Below, piece after piece: positions 1,829 to 2,589 of a DNA stretch of 64,000 bases. The DNA lies in contig CABMCB010000071.1 in NCBI GenBank assembly GCA_902384455.1, positions 59,774 to 123,773 of the forward strand, in the 5' to 3' direction. The translations under genes and the position numbers were made by a program. Below the pieces are notes generated by a model. It worked only from the letters and a program-made list of their open reading frames with translations. It did no database searches and was not told the origin of the DNA. Within the stretch, counting starts at the first letter, position 1, and each line of letters opens with the position of its first letter. The DNA is from an uncultured archaeon (GTDB lineage: Archaea > Altiarchaeota > Altiarchaeia > IMC4 > SCGC-AAA252-I15).

Positions 1829-1885
1829 TGTTTCACCTTTGGGAAAAACTTCTTGAGTATATCTTTTTGGCGTATAAAAACATTA

Positions 1886-1979
1886 GTTTAAATTTGAAAC
1901 TAATTTGTTCTATTTTTAGAAAATATTTTTAAAGTTTAAAGTATTTAGTTTAAAATTGAAACCAGTTTTGGTTTGAAAC
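1886..1979. promoter_or_regulatory. Three 15-bp GTTT-N6-GAAAC near-palindromes in the gdhA/lrp divergent intergenic region; putative Lrp/AsnC operator sites with an A/T-rich promoter
   Basis: gtttaaatttgaaac (1886-1900), gtttaaaattgaaac (1948-1962) and gttttggtttgaaac (1965-1979). 'tataaaaa' lies at 1873-1880. The last site ends 7 bp before the lrp ATG. Confidence 0.4.
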
Positions 1980-1986
1980 TATTGCG

Positions 1987-2589
1987 ATGACAGTCAAACT
2001 TACCGATAACGAGAAGAAAGTCCTTGAGTTCCTGCTCACGGACGGGCGGACATCCGCGACAGAAATAGGAAAGCACCTTGGAATCACTCCCCAAGCTGCA
2101 GGAAAAATCAAAGACAAACTAGAGGAGAAAGGAATCATCAAAGGATACACTGCAATAGTCGACTACTCAAAAGTCGGAATCTCAGTATTCGCAATAGGCT
2201 TCTTCAAATTCAAGTCCGGCGCATGGACGCGGCTGGAAGACGAAGACATAACCAACCGCATGAGCGGCCCGCATCTTATACGCGTATTCCGCTTCCAAGA
2301 AGGAGAATTCACCCACATGGTAGTCTACGGATTCCGCTCAATAATGGAACTCGACCACTACTTCCACATACTCCAAACCGAAAGAGGACACATCTCAGAA
2401 CTCAAAAAACTTTACGTGCTTTCAGAATCGAGCATACTCAAAGATTCCCCAAACGAACTCCTGGTGAAAGCAATACAAGAACTAGGCAAAGAAACACTAG
2501 CACGGCCGGAGCAGCCGCCTTCTAGCAGGTATTCTGTAAAGGGTACAACTTTAAAGGATGTTCGGGGTCCAAAGTTATCATTGCGATGA
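1987..2589 (+). CDS. Lrp/AsnC-family transcriptional regulator (N-terminal HTH plus C-terminal RAM-like domain), with a C-terminal extension
   Basis: N-terminus 'KLTDNEKKVLEFLLTDGRTSATEIGKHLGITPQAAGKIKDKLEEKGIIKGYTAIVD' is a classic Lrp/AsnC HTH. It sits divergent from gdhA. Confidence 0.75.
   Translation: MTVKLTDNEKKVLEFLLTDGRTSATEIGKHLGITPQAAGKIKDKLEEKGIIKGYTAIVDYSKVGISVFAIGFFKFKSGAWTRLEDEDITNRMSGPHLIRVFRFQEGEFTHMVVYGFRSIMELDHYFHILQTERGHISELKKLYVLSESSILKDSPNELLVKAIQELGKETLARPEQPPSSRYSVKGTTLKDVRGPKLSLR

Follow-up and report, generated by a model that had tools for sequence, protein, structure and literature searches.

Three palindromic boxes between gdhA and a divergent regulator gene

The 64-kb stretch of DNA from an uncultured archaeon of the Altiarchaeota that was analysed here (the window, in whose coordinates the box positions are given) carries a divergent gene pair whose spacer contains three similar palindromic boxes, the subject of this work. 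The gdhA gene (500..1828, minus strand) encodes a bacterial-type NADP-specific glutamate dehydrogenase (GDH) of 442 amino acids (aa) and is the presumed regulated target, and the regulator gene (1987..2589, plus strand) encodes a 200-aa protein with a winged helix-turn-helix (HTH) at residues 6-52, a RAM-like domain at about residues 67-146 and a C-terminal extension. The spacer between them (1829..1986, 158 nt) has a GC content of 23.4% versus 50.7% for the window. A preliminary description, made from the sequence alone, had labelled the genes gdhA and Lrp/AsnC, and both labels held: the gdhA product scored 749.4 bits against NCBIfam PRK09414 (NADP-GDH; cut-off 536) and matched Pfam ELFV_dehydrog and ELFV_dehydrog_N, while an Lrp/AsnC fold of the regulator was supported by a PDB profile search and a structural model, as described below.

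The same description had placed three GTTT-N6-GAAAC near-palindromes in this A/T-rich spacer, the last ending 7 bp before the regulator ATG (1987), and these positions were confirmed by direct reading of the sequence. Box 1 is the 19-mer TAGTTTAAATTTGAAACTA at 1884-1902 (core GTTTAAATTTGAAAC, 1886-1900), box 2 the 19-mer TAGTTTAAAATTGAAACCA at 1946-1964 (core GTTTAAAATTGAAAC, 1948-1962) and box 3 the 19-mer CAGTTTTGGTTTGAAACTA at 1963-1981 (core GTTTTGGTTTGAAAC, 1965-1979, whose end is 7 nt from the ATG). The centre of box 1 lies 65 nt from the gdhA ATG and at -94 from the regulator ATG, those of boxes 2 and 3 lie at -32 and -15 from the latter, and all three boxes fall within 103 bp upstream of it. 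The palindrome is real, but its symmetric form differs from the motif first written: the dyad is GTTT-N7-AAAC (6+3+6, a 15-bp core) and extends to a 19-mer of the form TAGTTT[A/C]A-WWW-T[T/G]AAACTA. Relative to the 19-mer consensus TAGTTTMANNNTKAAACTA, which was built from other genomes only, boxes 1, 2 and 3 have 0, 1 and 3 mismatches, and a symmetrised position weight matrix (PWM) built without the window scored them at 20.9, 20.8 and 10.7 bits, respectively. Box 3 is therefore the weaker site by both score and mismatches; its central triplet, GTT as against ATT in box 1 and AAT in box 2, has a G in the centre, in line with the lower score.

Searching both strands of the window for GTTT-N6-GAAAC returned only these three matches, all in the gdhA-regulator spacer and within 96 bp. 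Their raw number is unremarkable alone (3 versus 1.18 expected; at least 3 in 17 of 100 shuffles), whereas their clustering in one spacer is significant: 200,000 first-order Markov spacers matched in length and composition included 85 with two GTTT-N7-AAAC sites and none with three or more. The PWM found no further match of at least 8 bits in the window; an extra GTTT-N7-AAAC at 51613 and a 3-mismatch match at 24507 both lie inside open reading frames (ORFs; crude gene call) and stay under 8 bits.

Boxes 1 and 2 are 62 bp apart, which is about 6 helical turns, in phase and twice 31, and boxes 2 and 3 are 17 bp apart, about 1.6 turns, off-phase and nearly abutting. A repeat search grouped the three as an 18-nt direct-repeat family AGTTTAAATTTGAAACTA (100, 89 and 83% identity; start-to-start spacings of 62 and 17 nt) and recovered a second family, D1, with two 54-nt units (1853-1906 and 1915-1968; 72% identity, about 62 bp apart), with a box at the end of each. 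Of the 32 positions that flank boxes 1 and 2 on the left, 20 agree between the two copies (shuffle P about 9e-4). The extra, gdhA-proximal box and the length of the spacer (158 nt, versus 73-109 nt in most orthologous spacers and 127-252 nt in a few) are probably the product of a tandem duplication of about 62 bp that copied a TATA-plus-box unit.

The regulator is a divergent member of the Lrp/AsnC fold

Domain models described the regulator only in part. Pfam detected HTH_24 at residues 6-52 (32.2 bits, cut-off 21.9), HTH_AsnC-type scored 21.5 bits, below its cut-off of 27, and AsnC_trans_reg, the RAM model, was not detected in the Pfam scan; the NCBIfam equivalogs LrpA, Lrp, LysM and AsnC scored 21-44 bits with cut-offs of 180-250. 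Since Pfam and NCBIfam alone left the Lrp label unsupported, a PDB profile search and a structure prediction were needed. A profile built from 28 homologues matched Pyrococcus furiosus LrpA (1i1g, 5e-12), a halophilic Lrp (8e-12) and FL11/PH1519 (1e-11), and its alignments to FL11 (over residues 4-128; FL11 residues 4-123) and to the halophilic Lrp (13-132) ran through residues 128-132, well into the second domain. The AlphaFold2 (AF2) model, of moderate confidence (predicted local distance difference test, pLDDT, 71), has three helices at residues 7-47 followed by a beta-alpha-beta-beta-alpha-beta topology (E67-75, H79-91, E97-102, E110-116, H119-131, E137-146). When it was compared with the PDB by Foldseek, ranks 1-44 were all Lrp/AsnC regulators or Lrp/AsnC-fold sirohaem decarboxylases, with about 150 aligned columns, the top match being the FL11-DNA complex 2e1c (E = 3e-9).

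As modelled, the regulator is thus a divergent Lrp/AsnC (FFRP)-fold protein with the N-terminal winged HTH of the family, and at the level of this predicted fold, from a model of moderate pLDDT, it also has the RAM effector and oligomerisation domain. The assignment to Lrp/AsnC stands for the fold; what it had overlooked is that the protein belongs to a divergent subfamily missed by the Pfam RAM-domain model. By the NCBIfam equivalogs and by PDB identity (best 24-28%) it is not an orthologue of the characterised LrpA, Lrp, LysM, AsnC or halobacterial Lrp/LrpA1, and by its relatives it appears to form a separate subfamily almost exclusive to Altiarchaeota: the 103 database relatives are labelled Altiarchaeota or Altiarchaeales wherever the source names the organism. 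The source record of the exact protein reads 'Ptr2, uncultured archaeon', a source label only. The family shows no variation at Q36, G39 and I41 of the recognition loop and almost none at A37, which fits an operator common to the family.

At the C terminus, the family also has about 50 further conserved residues (S..S..KDSP.ELL.K.IDE.G.E.LARPE.PKP), an extension absent from canonical Lrp proteins; in the window protein it corresponds to residues of about 147-200 (2425..2589), of which the last 20 or so show no conservation and are modelled with low confidence (pLDDT about 40). The 3' end of the regulator gene overlaps by 32 nt the ORF 2558..3664, a member of the alkaline-phosphatase superfamily (Pfam Phosphodiest, Sulfatase), and the true stop of the regulator or the true start of this ORF may differ from the ORF calls.

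The box recurs upstream of the regulator family in other genomes

As the hypothesis was drawn from the window, other genomes served as an independent test, for which loci were taken from species-representative genomes (40) and from metagenomes (80). In 335 kb, comprising the 40 genome loci and the window, GTTT-N7-AAAC occurred 38 times, 25 of them within 120 nt upstream of a regulator of the family. The spacers upstream of regulators (n = 36, 4.5 kb, 24.8% GC) held 25 such sites, with a match in 21 spacers, as against 2 sites in 43 other spacers (4.3 kb) of matching composition. A scan of 256 tetramers at 13 spacings (3,328 dyads), with the window excluded, ranked GTTT-N7-AAAC first: it was present in 20 of 41 regulator-upstream versus 3 of 53 control spacers (Fisher P = 1.5e-6), and the P value survived correction for 3,328 tests. 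The second-ranked dyad, TTTA-N5-TAAA, is nested in the first.

The PWM consensus from the other genomes reads T-A-G-T-T-T-[A/C]-A-W-W-W-T-[T/G]-A-A-A-C-T-A. Its matches of at least 12 bits had a density of 7.2 per kb upstream of regulators versus 0.22 per kb in other AT-rich DNA, figures that are illustrative, as the refined matrix was trained on the regions scored. Elsewhere in 575 kb of related sequence there were 13 matches of at least 12 bits, and 5 non-redundant ones of at least 13 bits.

Box positions are anchored to the regulator start codon

For the positional analysis, identical upstream regions of relatives were collapsed to 98 non-redundant ones and boxes were counted from 10 bits upwards. 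At least one box was found in 89 of the 98 regions and at least two in 49. Measured from the ATG, box centres lay at exactly -32 in 30 of the 98 regions, between -33 and -29 in 42 and at -1 in 39, and adjacent boxes were 30-32 bp apart in 35 of 65 cases (mode 31 bp) and 15-16 bp apart in four. Box 2 of the window occupies the modal -32 position of the family. Counterparts of box 3 (-15) were found in the closest relatives, where they are strong boxes, at -16 (locus L096; L numbers denote the fetched loci), -17 (L002/L045), -20 (L007) and -22 (L052/L056). Distal boxes are often the best palindromes, as with box 1 of the window (-94) and those at -165 in L008 and -209 in L031; L103 has five boxes.

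The -1 box of relatives (e.g. L042:875-893, L046:447-465, L049:936-954, L005:3982-4000, L003:3345-3363) takes its right half-site from the start codon plus the four bases after it (ATGAAAC or GTGAAAC, which code for Met-Lys-Leu/Pro/Gln). Its non-coding left half, GTTT at -8..-5, was present in 12 of the 98 regions as against about 1% per position elsewhere, an enrichment of about 12-fold, and in 9 of 22 gdhA-linked regulator genes. This candidate operator would include the start codon of an apparently leaderless gene. No -1 box occurs in the window, because its gene begins with ATGACAG instead of the ATGAAAC of relatives, and the candidate site appears to have been lost there.

A further palindrome, (G)TATTTAAATAC(TTAAAC), is conserved in the gdhA-regulator spacers of relatives (L096, L007, L049, L052, L056, L009 and L014; e.g. 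L009:779-789). Its distance to the main box, measured by eye, is 34-36 bp in at least six of these gdhA-linked loci (L096, L007, L049, L052, L056 and L009), however far either ATG lies. No exact copy occurs in the window. It may be a TATA element common to both divergent promoters, or a degenerate upstream box with a 4-nt centre instead of a 3-nt one.

The regulator family adjoins genes of glutamate and glutamine metabolism

Linkage was counted for 119 regulator genes, found in the 120 fetched loci together with the window. The divergent neighbour was a bacterial-type gdhA in 26 loci (mostly 73-83% identical to the window gdhA, two about 64%), a second GDH type, about 30% identical, in 5, a 534-aa protein with a Glu_synthase domain in 24 and a CCG/4Fe-4S (Fe-S) protein in 15; in 49 it was unidentified or off the contig end. 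Downstream of the regulator, several loci carry a glutamine synthetase gene (glnA) or a GMP synthase gene (guaA), some of them convergent. Several paralogues of the regulator may occur on one contig (L005 and L008; L016 and L028), and L003 has a tandem pair. Example neighbour loci of paralogues are L012:2325-3929, L025:2605-3921, L016:4558-5904, L028:4592-6130 and L026:2654-3913. Judged by these neighbours, the regulator family appears consistently tied to glutamate and glutamine metabolism. Homologues of the glutamate synthase (GOGAT)-like, CCG, glnA and guaA genes were not found in the window, which has the gdhA pair only.

The archaeal GdhA model gave the window GDH only 216 bits (cut-off 750), and in other Altiarchaeota the GDH of about 30% identity occupies the same place beside the regulator. 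This suggests that the gene was replaced or acquired horizontally while its link to the regulator was kept.

Predicted promoter geometry places the boxes over both core promoters

On the gdhA strand, direct reading found a Shine-Dalgarno-like GGTGA at 1833..1837 (minus strand; -9..-5 from the gdhA ATG), with GGTG-type motifs at the equivalent place in orthologous spacers, so the gdhA mRNA would have a leader. A candidate TATA element of gdhA, TTTTTATA, lies at 1873..1880 (minus strand; -52..-45 from the ATG). The distance from an archaeal TATA element to the transcription start site (TSS) is about 26 bp, and the gdhA TSS is predicted near 1850. The core of box 1 starts 5 nt upstream of this candidate TATA, over the position of the transcription factor B recognition element (BRE).

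The regulator strand lacks a Shine-Dalgarno motif. A TATA-like TTTAAAAT falls inside box 2 (1949-1956), from which transcription of the regulator is predicted to start near 1977-1982, and box 3 covers the stretch from this TATA-like element to the start codon; an alternative TATA at 1924-1933 would place the regulator TSS inside box 2. Boxes 2 and 3 would overlap the regulator core promoter under either TATA, so that negative autoregulation is the best-supported expectation.

A predicted regulator-operator pair

We consider the three boxes to be predicted operator sites, each for one dimer, of the Lrp/AsnC-fold regulator encoded at 1987..2589, which would thereby be tied to gdhA, and we assign this reading as a whole a probability of roughly 0.78. 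It starts from direct observations, namely the boxes and their statistics, their conservation and positions in relatives and the gene linkage, together with a protein fold taken from a model. The Lrp operator array linking regulator and gdhA that had been proposed from the window alone is supported by the predicted fold, by the form of the sites, by the rank and the fixed positions of the dyad elsewhere and by gdhA linkage in 26 of 119 cases.

In the mechanism that we propose, regulator dimers would bind boxes 2 and 3 and block the recruitment of TBP/TFB or RNA polymerase, resulting in negative autoregulation of an mRNA that is apparently leaderless or has a short leader and whose TATA-like element, at about -32, box 2 would hold. 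Box 1, abutting the BRE/TATA of gdhA, would let the same regulator set gdhA transcription, either by activation from a BRE-proximal position, as with Ptr2, LysM and Ss-LrpB, or by repression through BRE occlusion, hindered TFB or DNA wrapping between boxes 1 and 2. A small-molecule effector at the RAM domain would probably modulate occupancy or oligomerisation, and glutamate, glutamine or a related amino acid is a likely candidate because of the genes that neighbour the family.

Several points weigh against this reading. We infer every functional step in it, from binding and the direction of regulation to the effector and the positions of TSS and TATA elements. Pfam AsnC_trans_reg misses the C-terminal domain of the regulator, and the NCBIfam equivalog scores are far under their cut-offs. 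Simultaneous occupancy of boxes 2 and 3 is uncertain, given the weakness of box 3, the G in its centre and its off-phase position 17 bp from box 2. The distance from box to gdhA ATG is not conserved among relatives (46-93 nt) and so favours neither activation nor repression of gdhA. A TATA-like run in the -32 box and, in relatives, the ATGAAAC start within the -1 box could mean that part of their conservation reflects promoter or coding constraint. Finally, the refined PWM and its density figures are circular, and the spacer counts and the dyad scan are the independent tests.

Alternative explanations

The alternative that survives best, though we consider it unlikely, is that the boxes are operators of a different, unlinked factor acting on Lrp-like genes and their metabolic neighbours. 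A global nitrogen regulator, for example, could target all of these spacers, as the neighbours all belong to glutamate and glutamine metabolism. The position of the boxes is nevertheless fixed to the regulator ATG (-32, -1) whatever the neighbour, including loci where no nitrogen gene was identified; boxes are almost absent from the rest of the 575 kb of related sequence; and FFRP dimers bind sites of this form (PMC2715240). The NrpR operator of methanogens, GGAA-N6-TTCC, is unrelated to the box.

Slightly less probable again is that the boxes are core-promoter sequence (TATA/BRE, initiator), combined in relatives with a constraint on the N-terminal codons, and that no dedicated regulator binds them. 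The run of TTTTTAAA or TTTAAAAT in the -32 box does lie at the TATA distance for a leaderless mRNA, and the right half of the -1 box of relatives codes for their first residues. A TATA element, however, has no need of the end G and C, which are symmetric and 15 bp apart, and GTTT-N7-AAAC outranks all other dyads while being nearly absent from other AT-rich promoter spacers (2 in 4.3 kb). Distal copies, which cannot serve as the regulator TATA, make the best palindromes (box 1 at -94, L008 at -165, L031 at -209 and those of L103), and the 12-fold enriched left half of the -1 box is non-coding. Dyad symmetry, distal copies and positions anchored to the regulator are thus fitted less well by either of these two explanations than by operator sites of the adjacent regulator.

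That the repeats are a functionless accident of a low-complexity AT-rich spacer, or a passive product of the 62-bp duplication, is highly improbable: the 23% GC of the spacer, the 72% identity of the 54-nt units holding boxes 1 and 2 and the ordinary raw count of 3 would suit it, but three sites arose in 0 of 200,000 composition-matched simulations, duplication explains neither box 3 nor the same motif before about 90 homologues elsewhere, and chance is excluded because of this cross-genome conservation. The idea that these inverted repeats in an AT-rich spacer act as RNA or DNA structure (a hairpin, terminator or small RNA) or as origin recognition boxes (ORBs) of a replication origin has just as little probability: mini-ORB elements also end in GAAAC, but the RNA fold of 1875-1995 (z = -0.52) was equalled or bettered by 60 of 200 shuffles, the sole Rfam match with E of at most 1 was a sub-threshold DicF (18 bits versus a gathering cut-off of 48; E = 0.27), no terminator is needed between divergent genes, and an origin was rejected, as boxes recur beside several paralogues on one contig (L005 and L008; L016 and L028), unlike a single origin, and no obvious orc1/cdc6 is among the ORFs listed in the first 6 kb, the four that were scanned with Pfam being other genes.

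Recognition rules and relation to known Lrp systems

The optimal sites of four archaeal FFRPs, determined by SELEX, have the form abcde[AAT/ATT]e'd'c'b'a', and an A/T centre is needed for bending (PMC2715240). The 6+WWW+6 boxes have this site form, that of clustered inverted repeats of 13-17 bp with an A/T centre, with boxes 2 and 3 off-phase. A spacing of three helical turns is typical for Lrp arrays (PMC2995911). The alignment of the regulator with FL11 is gapless and the numbering coincides, giving A24, T34, P35, Q36, A37 and G39 as the window residues. According to the recognition code, Ala/Thr37 pairs with T at base 'a' and Arg39 with G at 'c' (PMC2715240); the box has T at 'a' with Ala37 in the protein, and neither Arg39 nor a G at 'c' is present, so the pair is weakly consistent with the code.

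FL11 (PH1519) of Pyrococcus sp. OT3/P. horikoshii is the best structural match and among the best profile matches, has the same site form (PMC2715240), and autoregulates and controls an amino-acid pathway, a likeness to the switch proposed here. It differs in its identity of 24-25%, in its half-site (TGAAA or CGAAA versus GTTTA or GTTTC here), in its DNA-contact residues (L24A, A34T, E35P, S36Q, T37A and H39G from FL11 to the window protein) and in its effector and target, which are lysine and the biosynthesis of lysine rather than GDH.

Ss-LrpB of Sulfolobus solfataricus has three similar 15-bp semi-palindromic boxes in its own operator, each for one dimer, with cooperative binding, DNA wrapping and concentration-dependent autoregulation (PMC1802622, PMC2995911). 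The window likewise has three boxes with 15-bp cores in the control region of the regulator itself. The Ss-LrpB consensus is TTGCAAAATTTGCAA, however, as against GTTT[A/C]A-WWW-T[T/G]AAAC here; its boxes are regularly spaced, whereas those of the window are 62 and 17 bp apart; and the window array is shared with the divergent gdhA promoter and belongs to a distantly related protein with a C-terminal extension.

In metabolic context, the window family resembles two other proteins. Sa-Lrp of Sulfolobus acidocaldarius responds to glutamine and, besides its own control region, binds those of gdhA, gltB and three glnA genes (PMC3584215), and the lrp of Halobacterium salinarum adjoins glnA, is leaderless and activates glnA (PMC2894021); the window family similarly adjoins GDH, the Glu_synthase-domain gene and glnA. 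The window regulator is of a different subfamily from these proteins (NCBIfam TranRegLrp_Halo, 41 bits versus a cut-off of 190), and Sa-Lrp is described as versatile and architectural (PMC3584215), in contrast to the sharply defined operator predicted here.

LrpA of P. furiosus binds its own promoter just downstream of the TATA and blocks RNA polymerase recruitment (PMC2995911), a geometry like the one we propose for box 3 and, in the closest relatives, for the boxes at -16 to -22, and it was the top PDB profile match. The window protein is not its orthologue (NCBIfam LrpA equivalog, 43.9 bits versus 250, HTH only), and no metabolic target adjacent to LrpA is known. Ptr2 of Methanocaldococcus jannaschii has ferredoxin and rubredoxin genes as targets. 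It is an Lrp-family activator with paired palindromic sites just upstream of the BRE/TATA of its targets and recruits TBP (PMC2995911). More generally, the archaeal Lrp activators Ptr2, LysM and Ss-LrpB act from a dimer site just upstream of BRE (PMC2995911), and box 1 would be BRE-proximal at gdhA, in a position comparable to that of the Ptr2 sites.

The locus is hence the expected kind of Lrp switch, with a mechanism that is not new; it is a new and well-defined case in a divergent subfamily. Our literature search found no paper joining Altiarchaeum and Lrp, and papers with Altiarchaeota and GDH mention them in passing only. Altiarchaeota are uncultured, abundant subsurface CO2-fixers, and the locus offers a testable regulator-operator pair, with a 19-bp consensus, three sites of predicted affinities and a predicted promoter geometry, that would make their nitrogen control accessible to simple in vitro work and metatranscriptome analysis. 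It also provides a regulon hypothesis centred on the GDH, GOGAT-like and glutamine synthetase genes of Altiarchaeota and, for the FFRP recognition code, a new specificity combining a GTTT[A/C]A half-site with a Gln36/Ala37/Gly39 recognition loop. Tentatively, and at somewhat less than even odds, the regulator paralogues, their common 19-bp operator and the 31-bp phasing could constitute a dedicated, cross-regulating nitrogen-assimilation network of Altiarchaeota, of which the window would be a lineage-specific rewiring. If so, the paralogue network would take the role that NrpR or GlnR plays elsewhere, and the rewiring would consist of the 62-bp duplication that added a gdhA-proximal box and the loss of the start-codon box.

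A second Lrp gene and neighbouring genes

A canonical Lrp/AsnC gene lies at 14601..15095 (plus strand; Pfam AsnC_trans_reg 47.7 bits, HTH_AsnC-type 31.1 bits), followed after 2 nt by a class I/II aminotransferase gene (15098..16252, plus strand), with which it looks like an operon. The preliminary description had suggested this gene as a further place to look for the motif, and no GTTT-N7-AAAC box was found upstream of it. The encoded protein is only 20% identical to the gdhA-linked regulator and probably belongs to a separate amino-acid regulon outside the gdhA-linked system. Directly downstream of the locus, and with no box near, two minus-strand genes overlap by 19 nt, one for a dihydrolipoamide-dehydrogenase-like pyridine-nucleotide-disulphide oxidoreductase (3651..5051) and one for a lipoate-protein ligase (5033..5794; LplA-B_cat); they may relate to 2-oxoacid or glycine-cleavage metabolism.

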